The translations under genes and the position numbers were made by a program. Shown piece after piece: positions 14,040-33,741 of a stretch of DNA of 64,000 nucleotides; position 1 is the stretch's first letter; each line of letters opens with the position of its first letter. A model generated the notes under the pieces. It was not told the origin of the DNA. It did not search any database and was given only the letters and a program-made list of their open reading frames with translations. The stretch is from a phage: the NCBI GenBank assembly GCA_011939005.1, contig GCA_011939005.1_4858.1. The stretch is one strand, 5' to 3'.

Positions 14040-15893
14040 TTACAGTTTGAAGTTGCTCAGAGTCACGCCCAGACCGAAATCGGAACCGCTTGCAGACAGG
14101 CCGTTGCCAGACAGCGTGAAGTCTTCCCCACCGTTGTTGAAGAACAGAGAGGTCGCCATCGTGTTGTAGGCATTTACACCAGTCATAGACCAGGTGCAGT
14201 TGTTACGGACGAAGTCCAGCAGGCATTTACCGAAGATCGGGTTGATAGCCATATCCAGAGATTCACCGGTAGCTTGCGGTGCTTTGGATGCGAACAGAGA
14301 AGCGGCCAGTTTCAGCATGTAGATACGCTGTTGACGCTCGTTCAGTTCACGGTGGCTGTAGGACTGTGCGTTCAGGTAGCTATAGACGTCGTTCGCGTTA
14401 TCACCCAGTTTGGTAACAACGGAAATCAGGTCCATATCCTGGAAGCTACGTTTCTGTGCAGTACCGGTGTAAACACCGGAAACAGTCGGTACGGCTGCTT
14501 TCACGATGTGGCTGCAATGGATGGTACCATTGAAGGCATCGCCCAGCTGTGCTTTCAGTGCAGAAGCAAATACTGCAGTGAAGCTGGTCGCTGCAACAAC
14601 TTCGCCGTTCTGATCACGCGGGGACATGGAATTCAGAATAGCGAGCAGCTGTTTCAGAGAGTTGTCGTAACCGACCGCAATTTCAGACAGCAAAGTAGAC
14701 AGACCACCCAGGCCGTTACCGGCACGATGGCTAACTACCAGTGCTGCTTCACGCGGTGCGAACATATCCAGGCAACCTTCGATAGCTTCACGGCTACCGT
14801 CGATTTTGGATACATCAGGACGAGCGTCAGCACCCCAGGACAGGTATTCTGCCACACGGGAGAACTTGCGATCTTGTTTGTTCAGACGTTTCACAAACAG
14901 GTCACGCCAGCCACCGATTGCCGCGATTTCTGCAAATGCAGCCAGCAGCAGCAGTTGACGTTCATACGGTGCCATTGCACCTTCAGTTTGAGAATCGATC
15001 AGACTTACTACGATTTCAGCCTGCAGCTGTTTCAGGTCGTAGACGCCGTTAACGACAGGCTTCTGACCGGTGAAACGCATATTGACGAAACCGGTACCGG
15101 ATACACGCGGATACACCTGTACCTGATTGGTGTCCAGCAGAGTCGGAGTGGCGTCGGTTACGTTGCTTGGGCTGTGCTCAACGGTGATTGCGAAATCAGC
15201 ACGCTGTGCGTGGCCGTTAGCATCAACAACCGCACCATCTTCCAGCGGCATTACTGCGGCCTGATAACGGTCATGCTTACGCAGGTTCAGCGTACCCAGG
15301 TAGCCTGCGATACGACCGAAGATGCCCATCATCATCTGACCCATCAGAGTACGTGCCCACTCAGCATCCAGAACTTTACCCAGGTCTGGTACGGAGTTGA
15401 TGATCATGAAGTTCGCATTGGTCAGACCATGCGCTTCCATGATGTTTTTCTGTACTACTGCCAGCACGTCTTTGTTGAACAGTTCAGTGATGGTGTAGTA
15501 GTCTTCCTGGCCGTTGTTGGTAGTTTCTTTCAGACGCAGAGACTGACCGCGTTCAAAGAAGATGATACCGTACAGCCAGTGGCCCTGCCATTGGCCTGCG
15601 ACGTACGCCGCGGAACCCATTTCGTTACCCACGCCGACGATGGTGCCCCAGCGGAATGCGTTGAGGTATTCGTTGCTTTTCTTCAGCTCATCCAGGAGGT
15701 TGGTGAAGTGCATTGCATAGGTGCTGATGTTGCGGATGCCAAATGCGTTATCGAATTGGCTGACAGTAGAAGTACCCGGCACAGCAGTTTGCACTTTTAC
15801 AGTCTCGTTGCCCAGACCGCCCAGTGGTGCGGTGTCTTGAGTCTGAGTGTTGTTCTGCTGAGCGTTGTTGTTAGAGTCAACGATTTTTACCAT
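14040..15893 (-). CDS. hypothetical 617-aa protein, apparently monocistronic; candidate abundant protein (phage-nucleus shell protein or capsid protein; unverified)
   Basis: AAGGAA RBS; two motif copies upstream and a terminator downstream; low-complexity N-terminal (NNNAQQNNTQTQ) and C-terminal (GNGLSASGSDFGLG) tails around an ordered core. Confidence 0.7.
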   Translation of the reverse strand: MVKIVDSNNNAQQNNTQTQDTAPLGGLGNETVKVQTAVPGTSTVSQFDNAFGIRNISTYAMHFTNLLDELKKSNEYLNAFRWGTIVGVGNEMGSAAYVAGQWQGHWLYGIIFFERGQSLRLKETTNNGQEDYYTITELFNKDVLAVVQKNIMEAHGLTNANFMIINSVPDLGKVLDAEWARTLMGQMMMGIFGRIAGYLGTLNLRKHDRYQAAVMPLEDGAVVDANGHAQRADFAITVEHSPSNVTDATPTLLDTNQVQVYPRVSGTGFVNMRFTGQKPVVNGVYDLKQLQAEIVVSLIDSQTEGAMAPYERQLLLLAAFAEIAAIGGWRDLFVKRLNKQDRKFSRVAEYLSWGADARPDVSKIDGSREAIEGCLDMFAPREAALVVSHRAGNGLGGLSTLLSEIAVGYDNSLKQLLAILNSMSPRDQNGEVVAATSFTAVFASALKAQLGDAFNGTIHCSHIVKAAVPTVSGVYTGTAQKRSFQDMDLISVVTKLGDNANDVYSYLNAQSYSHRELNERQQRIYMLKLAASLFASKAPQATGESLDMAINPIFGKCLLDFVRNNCTWSMTGVNAYNTMATSLFFNNGGEDFTLSGNGLSASGSDFGLGVTLSNFKL

Positions 15894-15949
15894 TTTAAAT
15901 ATTCCTTAATAGTGATTGCAATCATAGTTCGGTTCGCAGAGATAATATC

Positions 15950-15964
15950 TGCCTGTAATTCCAT
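15950..15964. promoter_or_regulatory. copy 4 of motif (AGATAATATCTGCCT)
   Basis: 57 nt upstream of minus gene start 15893. Confidence 0.4.
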
Positions 15965-16032
15965 GGAATGCAAGTATGCCGTCGCTTACTTACAAGGCAC
16001 ATAGTCCAGACATTTCTCAGGAACTGTCACAT

Positions 16033-28857: not shown

Positions 28858-29232
28858 GTTGCTTCCTTCTTACTACTATTGCTGCTTCTATTGGTAGTCC
28901 ACGACATATCCCTCGTGGGTGGGTTCGGTGTGTAACCGAATAAGTTTTTCTGTTCCCAGGGCAACGCACCAGGCTTAATTGATTTAGTTGGCAAACCAGG
29001 AACAGAAAAGGGGTATACAGACTATGGCGCGAGGTGGCTCTGGATGGATGCGTAAGAAAAACCCAAACGGCCCTGGCCTGTAAGTTGGCCCGAAGTCACC
29101 GTGTCGGAGGACAGCCCATGCAGGTAGGCGGCAATGGACACGGTGACCGCGGAAGTGGTTCGTGTTACCCTTGACCCGTGTGTGGATACGCGTCTTATTT
29201 CGAATGCCTTCGGGATAAGGATAACACAAATG

Positions 29233-29312
29233 GGGCGAGCAAGTGGCAGGGATTCGAACCGTCGAAATATCCGATTATGAGTCGGGTGTTAATTCCTCTA
29301 ACTTCGCTGCTC
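29233..29312 (-). pseudogene. tRNA-like element with CAU anticodon arm; degenerate T-arm and acceptor (possible tRNA pseudogene)
   Basis: Minus-sense D-arm GTTA-GAGGAAT-TAAC and anticodon arm CCCGA-CTCATAA-TCGGA fold well; GGTTCGAATCC T-loop present but T-stem and acceptor pair poorly. Confidence 0.3.
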
Positions 29313-29313
29313 T

Positions 29314-29382
29314 TGCTTTGACCGGACTCGAACCGGCGACCTTCCTCGATGAGGCTGCTCTACCTACCTGAGCTACAAAGCC
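29314..29382 (-). pseudogene. tRNA-like element, truncated (69 nt) with aberrant anticodon/variable region
   Basis: Minus-sense acceptor GGCTTTG/CAAAGC, D-arm GCTC-AGGTAGGTA-GAGC and T-arm GCCGG-TTCGAGT-CCGGT are good, but the anticodon stem has a mismatch and the variable loop is about 3 nt too short. Confidence 0.3.
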
Positions 29383-30408
29383 ATTGTTCATGACATCATG
29401 ATAGTTACACTCAACGTACCACACCCCTACTGGTTTCCGTTTCGGGGGACTTAACCAGACACCATACGTCCAAGGTCGACGCTTAGGTGTGTTATCAGTT
29501 GCATGACTGGAAATCTCTTACGAGACGTCTACGTTGAACCGGCAAGCCGGCCATGATGTGAAGATGGGGGAACGCCCAGGCTTCCGCCCAGTCGAGTGAG
29601 GTACGAATCCTTCACTCCAGTCATCACTGATGGTGACAGCGCTCCCATTGTAAGGTGCCGGTGCTTCCCGGCGTGTGTTAGTGCACTCAGCTCCCTCGGG
29701 CTTATCTGCGGCAACACGTTGCCCGGAGCACCGACATATACCACAGTAACCTCGTAAAGTCACTCTGGTATTGTTCGTTGCATACTACTAAGTTACCACG
29801 TAAACGATTTCATCACTTCCATAAATAATAATTAACCTAAATTCATTTCTGAATGCAGGTGATGGACTTCTTCTTCTGAGCCTGGCCGTAAGGTCAGGTC
29901 TTAGCGTCTCCAAGCACCACCCGCTATCACGCACATTCGTGGCGTACCGGCCGTATGAGGTACCGCGCCTACGGTGACACACAGTCACCCTAACACTGGG
30001 AACTCAATCCCATTCGGTTATCAAATTGTGGATTTACAGGCGTAGCGTAGCGGCTTAATGGGCCGGTGCTTGCCTGTCCCCTAGGGACGGTTGTCGTGGA
30101 GACGCCAGTCTGTAAGTGGGGCCCTTGCGGGAAAACCCATCGCCTGTAAACCAAACATGATTGAATACCCAGAACCGGACGTTGGAAATCAACATCCTGA
30201 TGTACTGGAGTATTTCATGCATAAACGTGTCTCGTATCGAATGAGGTTATGACCGGTCAGATACCCAGCATCCTGTACAAGCGACCTGGTGCTTTGTGTA
30301 CCTGGCTGCTACGGATTTATTGGTCTACCGTAGGTCTAAGCTACTACCGGCTCATGCGGGACATCAACCCGCACAATCTGAGTAAGTATCATGGCTCGAA
30401 TAGGGTTA

Positions 30409-30424
30409 GTGGGCCGAAGCCCAC
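30409..30424 (-). other. stable hairpin 3 nt after stop of 30428..30670, no U-run
   Basis: GTGGGC-CGAA-GCCCAC; possible RNA-stability or processing element. Confidence 0.3.
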
Positions 30425-30427
30425 TGT

Positions 30428-30670
30428 TTAGCCAGCGTTGAACGATTCATGAACGACGGTCCCAGCAGGATAGTGCGTAGTACCGATAAGAGTAACGGTC
30501 AGGGTAAGCCCTTCATCCCAGCGCTCTTTCGGTAACCAGCGGCAGTCCATCCAATGACCACGGTCGGGAGGAATTGCACACGCGGCTTGCTCCGTAGGAG
30601 CCGCCACGATTATGGAATCAAATTCATCATACCCGATATCGTCAGTTCGTTCTAGCAAATACAAGTTCAT
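30428..30670 (-). CDS. hypothetical small protein (80 aa), paralog of the N-terminus of 31408..31983
   Basis: MNLYLLERTDDIGYDEFDSIIVAAPTEQAA resembles MNLYRIGFYRNEVPESVLVVLAENEEQAK. Confidence 0.5.
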   Translation of the reverse strand: MNLYLLERTDDIGYDEFDSIIVAAPTEQAACAIPPDRGHWMDCRWLPKERWDEGLTLTVTLIGTTHYPAGTVVHESFNAG

Positions 30671-30736: not shown

Positions 30737-30812
30737 TGGCGGGGGCACGAGGTTTCAAACCTCGAACCTTCGGTTTTGGAGACCGGTGCGCTACCAATTG
30801 CGCCATACCCCC
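30737..30812 (-). tRNA. tRNA-Trp (anticodon CCA), CCA end encoded
   Basis: 76-nt cloverleaf: 7-bp acceptor, D-arm GCGC-AATTGGTA-GCGC, anticodon loop CTCCAAA, T-arm CGAGG-TTTGAAA-CCTCG; one C-A mismatch in the anticodon stem and T at position 56. Confidence 0.7.
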
Positions 30813-30940
30813 AGAATCTTTACTCGGGTGCCATACGGATGGGAGGGGACTTCTTGCGCTGACCAAACAACGTCAAAACCGTATCCCGTAAACCCAACTG
30901 CTTTGGCTTATCCTAATTCTTCTTCGGCTTTTGAGACACG

Positions 30941-31411
30941 TTAAATCTCCTGGACTGGGCCACCCGTGTTGATATCAAACTTTGCAGCGATGCGAACAGC
31001 GTCTGCTGAACTCGCCCCTGCTGCCATTGCCCCGATTGCAAACTCGCAACCCGACCCAATCGCGACCGGTGGTTGCACAACCGCCATCCAGGGAAGTTCA
31101 TCGTCTTCGTACTGGCCGCCAGTGTACACAACACCTTTGTCCGTAATCGCGATGTACTTGAGCGTGATACCTTTGGGGAATCGGTGGTTGGACGTGAGAC
31201 CGTTGTAACTCGTCAACGCTTCATGAACCGCTTGTACGCCAACCAGTTTTCCAGCGACGCCATAAGCCACGATTTGATTACCATCCAAACGCCAGTTATC
31301 GCTGGGTTTGGCCATGAAGATTTTCTGCGTGTTCATGTCCAGGCGATAATCGCCTAAGGTCATCTGGCTGTCAGAAGCCAGGACTTTTCCGTCGAACGCT
31401 ATCGTCGTCAT
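30941..31411 (-). CDS. HslV/proteasome-beta-like N-terminal-nucleophile peptidase
   Basis: Start MTTIAFDGKVLASDSQMTLG matches HslV MTTIVSV...GDGQATLG; VAIGSG motif; ATG overlaps the upstream stop as ATGA (31408-31411). The track's longer N-terminus is probably spurious. Confidence 0.65.
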   Translation of the reverse strand: MTTIAFDGKVLASDSQMTLGDYRLDMNTQKIFMAKPSDNWRLDGNQIVAYGVAGKLVGVQAVHEALTSYNGLTSNHRFPKGITLKYIAITDKGVVYTGGQYEDDELPWMAVVQPPVAIGSGCEFAIGAMAAGASSADAVRIAAKFDINTGGPVQEI

Positions 31412-31983
31412 TGGGTCACCTTCCTCGGTGTGTACTCGAATGTCGTTTCCGTCAGGTAATCCTGGCGGATCCAAGTCAGCTCCTGGCCTTGCTCACACTT
31501 GATGTTCGTAACCAAACCGGCTTCAAGTGGTAGCTCACAGACCGAAACGATTCCGGGTTTATCACCGTCCCAATGTGCGAATGCCGCAGCAGGGGTTGTT
31601 GCCCCGACGATGATTCCGGAATCGACGTAGTCTTCGGTAGCGGCGTCGCTGTACACCAGGTACAGTTTGAGCGTCGAAGGTTGTTTAACCTGAAATCCGA
31701 AATACGTCTCGGTGTTGCCTGAGGGAAATTCCCAGGAATGTCTGGCAGGTTCGGAAACAAACTCCAAACCGGGATGGGAGTAATCTTCCCATCGGCCCAT
31801 CTTCAGGACTACGCCTGCAGCGACATCCGTTGTGGCAACTGGACCGTCGTAGCAGCACGCAACCGCTGGACGCTCTGCGCTAACCGGCCAGAAGGATTTG
31901 GCCTGCTCCTCGTTTTCGGCTAAGACAACCAAAACCGATTCTGGTACCTCGTTCCGGTAAAACCCGATGCGATACAAGTTCAT
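31408..31983 (-). CDS. hypothetical protein (191 aa)
   Basis: ORF translationally coupled to the HslV-like gene. Confidence 0.55.
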   Translation of the reverse strand: MNLYRIGFYRNEVPESVLVVLAENEEQAKSFWPVSAERPAVACCYDGPVATTDVAAGVVLKMGRWEDYSHPGLEFVSEPARHSWEFPSGNTETYFGFQVKQPSTLKLYLVYSDAATEDYVDSGIIVGATTPAAAFAHWDGDKPGIVSVCELPLEAGLVTNIKCEQGQELTWIRQDYLTETTFEYTPRKVTQ

Positions 31984-32932
31984 GGTTTAATTCTCCGTTT
32001 GGTTTATCATACCTCACGCAGAATCTGTAAATTTTAATCAGCCAGGTACTGGCGTTTCACAACGGGAGTACCCACCCCTCTCGTCTGTTCCGAGCCGTCA
32101 AGATCCGATCACCCCACTTTGGAGTTATCCCCCAAGTCTGCGGTTCTACACGCAGACCCCTTTTCGACGCAACGCCGAATTCGAATCAGTTTTGGCCCGA
32201 CGCCAGAGCGGAATCAGCGATAACTATCGGAGGTAAGTTCAACGACGTCTCTCCGCTGCCCAGTCCTCTGGCGCTGCCACGGTCAACTCGGATTTTGTCA
32301 TGGGTGCGCAGTCGACTTTCTCGACACTCTCGCAAACCGAACTACGCCCGACGTAGCACCGTCGGCAGGTCGGTTATTTACCGAGTACCTGAATGGGTGG
32401 TGATTGTCGGAATCCCCGCCGACGCTCACCGGTTCTGTTCCACGGCGAAAGTTTTCCAGAACATAATAAATCACGCAGTGTTAGATTGCGCTTTGTCGAA
32501 GACACCACGGTAGGTATTTTCGAAAAAGCGTCCTGGGTATCAGTCCCAGGACTTGGAGCCCTAGTGTGCAGGGTTTAAAAAGTGATTGGACCATTGGCGC
32601 GGTCAATCGCTATTCGCATATAACAACAAACTCACGTAATCAAAAAATTACCGGCTCGAGGCGTAGGCGTCCAGGAGCCGGTGAGTCACACAGCAGTGAG
32701 TCCCTCTGCGGGGATTTTCGTGGAGCTTGTCGTTGGAATAAAAATCCGTCCCCGGACGGGTTGGTGTTGTGGGTCGACTTGTCAGAGTCTACCTACCAGG
32801 GAGGCGACCACCAAAGCTATGGGTTTTTGGACATCGAGTGGTGGTCTGAACACACGATAGGGAAACCACGTAAAAAATACACAGGGTACCCGATCTCGGT
32901 CTTCCGTCCGATCACGATCTCTTAATAAGGAT

Positions 32933-33096
32933 CACGCGCGCGCCCGCACGCGTTTTAAGATCTTAATATATTAATATATTTATTTATATAAATAATTATA
33001 ATAATTAAATATAATACCTAAAGGTATTATTATATTTAATATTATTATATATTTTAAAAGATCCTGGAGGATACGGGTGCGCGCACGCGCACGCGT
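32933..33096. repeat. AT-rich imperfect palindrome flanked by alternating CG/CA tracts (candidate origin-like element)
   Basis: Core of about 110 nt, nearly pure A/T, with inverted symmetry about ATAATACC-TAAA-GGTATTAT (centre about 33020); GATC-containing ends; flanks CACGCGCGCGCCCGCACGCG and GGGTGCGCGCACGCGCACGCG. Confidence 0.5.
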
Positions 33097-33684
33097 ATAA
33101 GGAAAGGGTCTTCGACCCGATCCACAGGATCGATCTAAAAAACAATCTAAGTGATTGTTTTAAAAAGAAATTTTGAGAATTAGATTAAATTATCCCCTAA
33201 GGGGGATTTTAGAGTGAGTTAAACAACCCAAAGAACTCGTAAGTAACCGACAGTGTGTGTCGGTTACAGAACGATCCAGTTTTCACCCAGACATGGCACG
33301 AAGTGCTACCCAACGTGTGATCGTCGCGGCGACCGGCGACCGTCGTCCCGGAACCGAAACGGGAATGGCTCTCTCGCGCTCTCAGCGGCCCGCTGGCGCG
33401 ATTTTCCGGTAGGGGGAACCCAAGTGTACTGGGTCAGTTATAAATCTCGTTCTAGCGCTTTCTAGAGCGTTTTTAATAACCGGTTAAAAAACATACAATC
33501 CTGAATCCCCATTCCCCGTATTTCCTCGCCCCGACAAAAATAAATTCACCGACTCGATGCAAGACCCCCTCTAAAACGCACGTAATTGACCCTAGAAAAC
33601 GATAAACTATCAAAAATGAGCTACCCTACATCCAGACCACTTAATCGTTTTCTGGTGTTTCCTAGACCTCTTTAATCGGATGGT

Positions 33685-33735
33685 TAAAAAAACAAAAAAA
33701 ATAAGATTGGCGTACTCCCCGAAGAGAGTACGCCT
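33685..33735 (-). terminator. intrinsic terminator
   Basis: GGCGTACTC...GAGTACGCC hairpin followed (minus sense) by a long U-run. Confidence 0.55.
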
Positions 33736-33741
33736 AGTGAC

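Follow-up and report, generated by a model that had tools for sequence, protein, structure and literature searches.

A PPH-type proteasome homolog and an exchanged PPH and tRNA-Trp cassette in an SPN3US-like Salmonella jumbo phage

The window analysed here is a stretch of 64,000 nucleotides (nt) of phage DNA (GenBank assembly GCA_011939005.1, contig GCA_011939005.1_4858.1), and it comes from an SPN3US-like giant (jumbo) Salmonella phage of the genus Seoulvirus. Over 25 kb that carry the genes for terminase, tail sheath and RNA polymerase beta, it showed 98.6% identity with the Salmonella SPFM phages and 97.7% with SPN3US. The gene under study encodes a protein of 156 amino acids (aa), which is assigned below to PPH, a group of proteasome homologs of tailed phages and prophages (Table 1). 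It overlaps a 191-aa open reading frame (ORF) on its upstream side; downstream, a spacer of 128 nt separates its stop from a tRNA-Trp gene, and an 80-aa ORF follows. An earlier reading of the letters alone (the sequence-only reading) had taken the product for an HslV/proteasome-like threonine peptidase and was silent on the strand; the PPH gene is oriented along the minus strand. The syntenic gene of SPN3US, gp001, is already annotated as 'peptidase HslV family' and also has a tRNA-Trp downstream, and we found nothing in the literature on SPN3US gp1. The identification of an HslV-like peptidase is thus not new; for the window alone, this is an accessory gene that one would expect and that is already annotated in relatives. 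What is new is local, namely the cassette exchange of PPH and tRNA-Trp and the divergent PPH allele that the window carries.

The reverse complement of the gene region is translated into a protein with MTTIAFDGKVLASDSQMTLGDYRLDMNTQKIF, AIGSGCEFAIGAM and FDINTGGPVQEI, and its N-terminus is MTTIAFDGKVLASDSQ. The protein begins with MTTIAFDGK, as the sequence-only reading had said, and the motifs named there were located at residues 2–3 (Thr-Thr), 12–16 (ASDSQ, corresponding to AGDGQ in HslV) and 119–121 (GSG). The ATGA coupling described there was also recovered: the PPH ATG (31411..31409) overlaps the TGA (31410..31408) of the 191-aa ORF. A Shine-Dalgarno-like sequence, GAGGAAGGTGA, lies 4 nt 5' of this ATG, within the 3' end of the 191-aa ORF. 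We take this ATG as the true start because 175 of the 178 family members have (M/V)T at their very N-terminus; among the 150 best representatives, position 1 of the family profile is residue 1 of the protein almost without exception. A TTG at 31474, from which a mechanically called ORF would gain a 21-aa 'propeptide', was ruled out as start by the same family-wide N-terminus.

The 4-nt start/stop overlap was found again at PPH in Klebsiella phage IME346 and Proteus phage RS51pmB, and the upstream ORFs that overlap PPH in the three unrelated phages are mutually non-homologous. Judged from these sequences, tight packing at the PPH start recurs and the overlapping partner does not. In the surveyed loci of a Klebsiella Jedunavirus (L010, 3720..4004) and a Proteus phage (L011, 3780..4004), it is the stop of a small ORF that overlaps the PPH start by 4 nt.

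Searches with the single sequence were too weak to decide the family. Pfam Proteasome (PF00227) was matched with E 0.035 and 14.2 bits, below the gathering score of 22.4, and phmmer against PDB gave E 0.58; a profile was therefore needed. PHROG 1040, 'peptidase HslV family', matched the protein with E 3.6e-35, well beyond what chance would give. Run against PDB, a profile of 34 homologs matched 207 sequences with E<=0.01, among them M. jannaschii proteasome beta (1.4e-10) and E. coli HslV (1.7e-10), and 12 of the 34 homologs matched Pfam Proteasome individually (best 4.9e-8). The AlphaFold2 (AF2) model of the protein (pLDDT 95.5, pTM 0.89) shows the alpha-beta-beta-alpha fold of N-terminal nucleophile (Ntn) hydrolases, and the closest relatives in structure and sequence, HslV, proteasome beta and BPH, are all proteases. 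The profile search against HslV and proteasome beta proposed in the sequence-only reading therefore returned an Ntn-hydrolase match. The family hidden Markov model (HMM) found no second homolog within the window.

Conservation was read from an alignment of the 34 homologs, which reach down to 29% identity. Residues M1, T2, T3, I4, A5, D14, K30, G54, G119, G121 and D146 are invariant, and S120 is conserved in at least 90% of the sequences. The N-terminal Thr, on whose conservation the sequence-only reading had staked its interpretation, is therefore kept throughout, within an invariant MTTIA. In precursor numbering, the catalytic candidates are T2, D14, K30, G51/G54, S120, D146 and T149. The last six of these align with proteasome Asp17, Lys33, Gly47, Ser129, Asp166 and Ser169, although two alignments disagree by three residues on which glycine of GVAG (51 or 54) matches Gly47. 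On profile, model and residues together, the predicted protein belongs firmly in the proteasome-beta/HslV superfamily of Ntn hydrolases (MEROPS T1-like).

Within this superfamily, Fuchs, Alva and Lupas described 22 new proteasome homologs, PPH among them, and called PPH the first truly viral member of the proteasome family (PMC8665760). PPH was defined as compact, with about 140 aa, no propeptide and no S12/H5, and as occurring in Caudovirales and prophage regions; the missing H2 is unique to PPH and its offshoot RPC among proteasome homologs (PMC8665760). The window protein matches this description. The last elements of its model are H4 and a short strand, without S12/H5, no residue separates the Thr from the initiator Met, and DSSP assigned one helix (56–67) and a loop (68–83) at the place of H1 and H2, so that H2 is missing. 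Relatives were found in jumbo phages, in 40–50-kb phages and on IMG/VR contigs, and also in Providencia, Klebsiella and Endozoicomonas chromosomes, where they are named 'hypothetical proteins'. As in the group of Fuchs et al. (2021), the protein is a compact group-I proteasome homolog of tailed phages and prophages, and it keeps the set Thr1/Asp17/Lys33/Gly47. It differs by its length of 156 aa against the typical 140, because of two insertions of the jumbo-phage clade at residues ~34–45 (with a conserved Trp) and ~98–108; the former sits between the strand of catalytic Lys30 and that of the oxyanion glycine (Gly51/Gly54). The relatives range from 131 to 293 aa with a median of 152, many of them have 137–145 aa, and the best 150 mostly have 137–170 aa. 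An exhaustive HMM search gave 13,144 clusters at 50% identity with E<=1e-3 and 9,544 with E<=1e-10.

The protein is not HslV proper, as judged from sequence models and the predicted structure. Both HslV equivalog models scored it far below their cut-offs (TIGR03692, 11.9 bits vs 157.75; NF003964, 12.1 vs 137), and it is about 20 aa shorter than HslV (ClpQ). Like HslV, it begins with MTTI and would mature through removal of Met alone, and the two proteins have in common the GDGQ/SDSQ and GSG motifs. The PPH gene, however, is not beside hslU, and the HslU-like gene of its relatives is distant, tail-less and dispensable, whereas HslV proper, a dodecamer of two hexameric rings, is encoded with hslU and depends on it. 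From the sequence-only reading, the assignment to Ntn threonine hydrolases therefore stands and the HslV type does not. BPH resembles the window protein in having no known ATPase partner, but H2 is present both in BPH and in the beta subunits of the 20S proteasome; they assemble into 7-fold rings, and most 20S beta subunits have propeptides. A 20S beta subunit would also be expected to exceed the gathering score of PF00227 and to have an alpha partner; this protein stays below that score, and the window has no second homolog by the family HMM.

The gene body stands in a swapped cassette. Its edges were set through a three-way DNA alignment in which identity to SPLA5c was counted in 30-nt windows. 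Identity was 29–30/30 above 31408 and 27/30 over 31378..31407 (codons 1–11), fell to 8–22/30 from 31377 to ~30731, and was 26/30 below 30730. The backbone near the locus is 95–100% identical to the relatives (95% for the flanks by BLAST), but all close relatives carry the SPN3US-type allele, with which the PPH protein has just 42% identity. Among 50,697 phage records, the nearest phage alleles were those of SPAsTU (61%) and phiEaH2 (58%). The acceptor and T arms of the tRNA-Trp also differ from those of the tRNA-Trp in SPLA5c and SPAsTU. Compared with SPN3US gp001 and its orthologs, the gene is of the same family and sits at the same place in the same backbone, between the 191-aa ORF and tRNA-Trp, with its body, the spacer and the tRNA-Trp replaced.

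Both junctions lie in short conserved segments, one in the region coding for MTTIAFDGK and the other just 3' of the tRNA, and this sequence pattern therefore suggests that homologous exchange with an unsampled relative produced the cassette. Four independent assemblies of public read sets contain this allele (99% identical) with the three-gene context unchanged, and we therefore regard it as a circulating variant and not as an assembly artefact.

No HslU-like ATPase had been seen in the window by the sequence-only reading, and we agree: tblastn of the window, with either E. coli HslU or a phage HslU-like protein as query, gave nothing better than E 0.3. With E. coli HslU as query, a homolog of 586 aa (PHROG 4339) was found in SPLA3 and other phage genomes. 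Identity to the SPLA3 protein was 97% in phage 1252, 96% in MET_P1_082_240, 72% in SPAsTU, ~50% in pSal-SNUABM-04 and ~15 Erwinia jumbo phages, and 31% in the RAY/Ea35-70 group. The SPFM phages, which are the nearest backbone relatives, were absent among the full-length HslU-like matches listed. The HslU-like ATPase forms a nominal 'HslVU' pair with PPH and co-occurs with it in many Erwinia and Salmonella jumbo phages, though it lies outside the window and is variably deleted among Seoulviruses; in phages with both genes it is ~103 kb from PPH. In RAY this ATPase is gp116, and the gene named 'gp116, HslVU family' was for that reason rejected as a PPH. The publication on pSal-SNUABM-04 reported two HslV genes and no HslU, but its genome contains a full-length HslU-like match at 106144-107871, which contradicts the published absence.

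The AAA+ modules of the phage HslU-like protein are 38–48% identical to those of E. coli HslU, and its I-domain has about double the length. Its C-terminus reads ...RGHAWTENA, without the ...EDLSRFIL tail, and Pro315 is missing as well. In HslU, the tail with its strictly conserved Phe441 fits into pockets that lie between the subunits of HslV; activation requires the tail, and Pro315 contributes to it as well (PMC4106860, PMC6429459). The pocket on the HslV side is formed by Phe54, Phe57, Ala79/Lys80 on H2, and Gln114 (PMC6429459). In the window protein, Phe54 is replaced by Gln60 and Phe57 by His63, both variable across the family, and the H2 segment for Ala79/Lys80 is absent from the model; of the pocket residues only the equivalent of Gln114, in VVQP, is kept.

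The two genes are also uncoupled in their occurrence. SPLA1a and Lh1B have PPH with the HslU-like gene reduced to a 75-aa stub, by a ~2.2-kb deletion that also took a 160-aa protein, which is S80-like, and one of 110 aa, and the same type of PPH allele is found in SPLA3, with the ATPase, and in SPLA1a, without it. PPH is carried by 49-kb Klebsiella Jedunaviruses, a 42-kb Proteus phage and phage EL, and the Klebsiella and Proteus phages have no HslU-like gene. In the opposite direction, phages of the RAY type (RAY/Ea35-70) have the HslU-like ATPase and gave no PPH match. We surveyed the neighbours of PPH in 80 IMG/VR loci (38 PPH groups at 60% identity, 3,333 flanking ORFs clustered) and found no conserved one, the most widespread flanking cluster being present in 4 of the 38 groups, and no HslU-like ORF within +/-3 kb of PPH. 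The sole 'neighbour' cluster that was widespread was rejected, as it consists of a shadow ORF antisense to PPH. A co-occurrence search in IMG/VR found neither the window-type allele nor the HslU-like gene. Because the HslU homolog is tail-less or deleted, the two genes occur uncoupled and the 80 viral loci show no conserved neighbour, PPH is unlikely to have an obligate, co-evolving ATPase partner.

The Seoulvirus indel of ~2.2 kb, outside the window, can be followed in the surveyed loci of SPLA3 (L008, 3001..5656) and SPLA1a (L009, 3501..3728). The 160-aa protein beside the HslU-like ATPase has weak similarity to Peptidase_S80 (PHROG 7478, 'head maturation protease'), and the HslU-like unfoldase and this small protein may be a protease pair of their own.

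Taken together, we consider it probable that the gene encodes a compact, propeptide-less Ntn threonine hydrolase which likely has no dedicated unfoldase and whose allele arrived by cassette exchange between related jumbo phages. Translation would start from the ATG at 31411 through the gene's own Shine-Dalgarno-like site, as both the sequence and the family N-terminus indicate. By analogy with Ntn and HslV chemistry, methionine aminopeptidase of the host would then remove Met1, because Thr is a permissive second residue, and expose Thr as residue 1. The free amino group and the side-chain hydroxyl of an exposed Thr1 would make up the catalytic centre, as in E. coli HslV. By alignment and conservation, Asp14, Lys30, Gly51/54, Ser120, Asp146 and Thr149 are predicted to fill the catalytic positions of the proteasome. 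PPH would then most likely cleave peptide bonds via Thr1/Lys/Asp and without a co-encoded unfoldase. Independence from an unfoldase is proposed because PPH has no conserved neighbour and no H2, most residues of the HslU-tail pocket are gone, and PPH persists in phages that lost or never had the HslU-like gene.

Several points weigh against this interpretation. HslV is almost inactive without HslU, and if PPH forms rings, it might depend on an activator in the same way. An HslU homolog is encoded by some relatives and the host Salmonella has HslU, so that PPH may use the host protein or interact in a non-canonical way; the best single structural match of the model is HslV, and the VVQP motif around HslV Gln114 is common to both proteins. 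The assignment to PPH was made by defining features and not by clustering with the PPH reference WP_042125023.1. The label 'peptidase' follows only from homology and conserved residues; we found no experimental paper on any PPH in the literature, and a member of the fold, connectase, acts as a ligase and not as a protease (PMC8665760).

The protein might otherwise be a functional equivalent of HslV, that is, a double ring which serves as an ATP-dependent protease once activated by host HslU (hijacked or titrated) or by the distant HslU-like ATPase of phages. The MTTI N-terminus and the VVQP...IGSG segment resemble E. coli HslV, the enterobacterial host has HslUV, and PPH stands together with the HslU homolog in SPLA3, 1252, MET_P1_082_240, SPAsTU, pSal-SNUABM-04 and ~15 Erwinia phages. 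Yet such an enzyme would have to be activated without the HslV-side pocket, since H2 is absent and the two Phe positions vary, and by a phage ATPase without the ...F-I-L tail and Pro315, both of which are needed for activation (PMC4106860). The equivalog models at about 12 bits against cut-offs of 137–158 are also against it, and so are the uncoupling in both directions (SPLA1a/Lh1B, Klebsiella and Proteus phages vs RAY/Ea35-70) and the single PPH allele type that occurs with the ATPase in SPLA3 and without it in SPLA1a. We therefore hold this explanation to be unlikely.

Thr1 chemistry might instead serve another purpose, in a specific processing enzyme, a connectase-like transpeptidase or ligase, or an amidase on a non-protein substrate. 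According to Fuchs et al., several of the new proteasome homologs may not form rings; the clade insertions, the first of which lies between Lys30 and the Gly51/Gly54 strand, could shape specificity, and replacement of alleles at a fixed locus fits an accessory function that determines specificity. But the nearest relatives are all proteases, the full catalytic set of the proteasome is kept, including the equivalents of Ser129, Asp166 and Ser169, and the model has no helical insertion like that of connectase, which makes such a use improbable. Inactive paralogs are common in the superfamily, as proteasome alpha and some beta subunits show, and the protein could accordingly be a catalytically dead decoy or structural protein that retained the fold. 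Against this, the catalytic positions are invariant down to ~29% identity and the family keeps its initial Met-Thr in 175/178 sequences, which is the signature of purifying selection on catalysis, and we give a dead protein hardly any weight. The compact Ntn threonine hydrolase without a dedicated unfoldase is therefore the reading that we retain.

Table 1. Positions of the PPH gene, the exchanged cassette and other features in the window
Feature	Position	Strand	Remark
Coding sequence of the PPH-type proteasome/HslV-like Ntn threonine hydrolase (156 aa)	30941..31411	minus	
ATGA start/stop overlap of the 191-aa ORF and the PPH gene	31408..31411	minus	plus strand reads tcat
Shine-Dalgarno-like GAGGAAGGTGA	31416..31426	minus	read from the sequence; putative role
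Swapped cassette (~640 bp)	30740..31377	minus	PPH from ~codon 12 to stop, 128-nt spacer, whole tRNA-Trp
tRNA-Trp (CCA)	30737..30812	minus	ARAGORN; Rfam tRNA 63 bits
191-aa ORF	31408..31983	minus	upstream, overlaps PPH start; restricted to SPN3US-like phages
80-aa ORF	30428..30670	minus	downstream; PHROG 5444 (E 5.9e-36)
tRNA-like element	29313..29382	minus	Rfam tRNA 37.7 bits (gathering score 29); no ARAGORN call
ORF-poor region (~1.5 kb)	28858..30427		between 273-aa and 80-aa genes
Region without convincing ORF (1.76 kb)	31984..33741		unannotated also in SPLA5c and SPAsTU
Almost pure A/T run (~100 nt)	32957..33055		with palindromes
GC-rich direct repeat	32936 and 33079		brackets the A/T run
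617-aa gene	14040..15893	minus	PHROG 8316 (E 3.5e-302)
576-aa ORF	14274..16004	plus	antisense to the 617-aa gene

The proteins encoded on both sides of PPH begin with MNLY, and the sequence-only reading had placed them in one small paralog family. Both proteins exist, but their relatedness is weakly supported: each half of the 191-aa ORF shows a weak resemblance to the 80-aa family (BLAST E 0.03-0.26; shuffle p 0.002-0.02), and 15/16 nt are common to the start regions of the two genes. On these comparisons the two ORFs are plausible, if weakly supported, distant paralogs. The 80-aa ORF has an ortholog of 58% identity at the same position in SPAsTU, and for the 191-aa ORF we found close homologs only, in SPN3US-like phages. 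A natural variant of the latter, P0182, has 107 aa and lacks exactly residues 72–155, the kind of loss expected from recombination between tandem repeats. The 191-aa ORF is therefore probably an internal tandem duplication of a unit of ~85 aa that is distantly related to the 80-aa ORF, as far as sequence comparison tells. Its AF2 model was unusable (pLDDT 34.6).

We considered the 191-aa protein as a specific partner of PPH and rejected it, as it lies outside the cassette and its 3' end is essentially identical to that of SPLA5c. It is unchanged while PPH drops to 42% identity, which argues against a specific pairing in spite of the ATGA overlap. No functional link between the MNLY proteins and PPH was found.

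Other features were observed farther from the gene. In the ORF-poor flanks, the only Rfam matches were the tRNA-Trp and the weak tRNA-like element, whose equivalent in SPN3US carries the RefSeq label 'tRNA-OTHER'. The ORF-poor ~1.5 kb around this element is partly homologous to the tRNA region of SPAsTU, and the syntenic region there has six more tRNAs (Tyr, Glu, Asp, Ile, Gln and Asn) which are absent from the window; this suggests that a tRNA cluster has decayed or turned over by indels. On the other side of the locus, the 1.76 kb without a convincing ORF are conserved, with 95% identity to SPLA5c and ~72% to SPAsTU. The direct repeat on either side of the A/T run in this region is GCGCGC(G/A)C(C/G)CGCACGCGT, and the GenBank records of several relatives start within the region, which could be regulatory or origin-like. 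The 576-aa ORF on the plus strand matched no PHROG family; it is most likely a long shadow ORF of the real 617-aa gene.

For the window itself, the practical value of the analysis is a corrected label, 'PPH-type proteasome homolog' instead of 'HslV', together with a documented cassette exchange. More widely, PPH is a very large proteasome-like family (9,544 clusters at 50% identity, E<=1e-10) that was described by computer analysis. Salmonella and the SPN3US-like phages are a genetically tractable pair for a minimal proteasome homolog without H2, propeptide or dedicated unfoldase, and these phages offer natural swaps of the PPH allele as well as natural presence and absence of the HslU-like ATPase. 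A bolder view, to which we give only a small chance, is that PPH acts as an ATPase-independent threonine protease against host proteins, in takeover or counter-defence, with a specificity set by the clade insertions beside the active site and a locus that is a cassette hot spot under diversifying selection, or else that it is part of a non-canonical phage 'proteasome' on which the tail-less HslU-like ATPase docks in a new way. If the hot-spot view were true, a 42%-identical allele in a backbone 98.6% identical to the SPFM phages (25 kb) would be explained by the exchange of PPH and tRNA-Trp cassettes. The modest interest of the finding would grow if PPH turned out to be an independent protease directed against the host, or the protease part of a non-canonical machine with the tail-less HslU-like ATPase.

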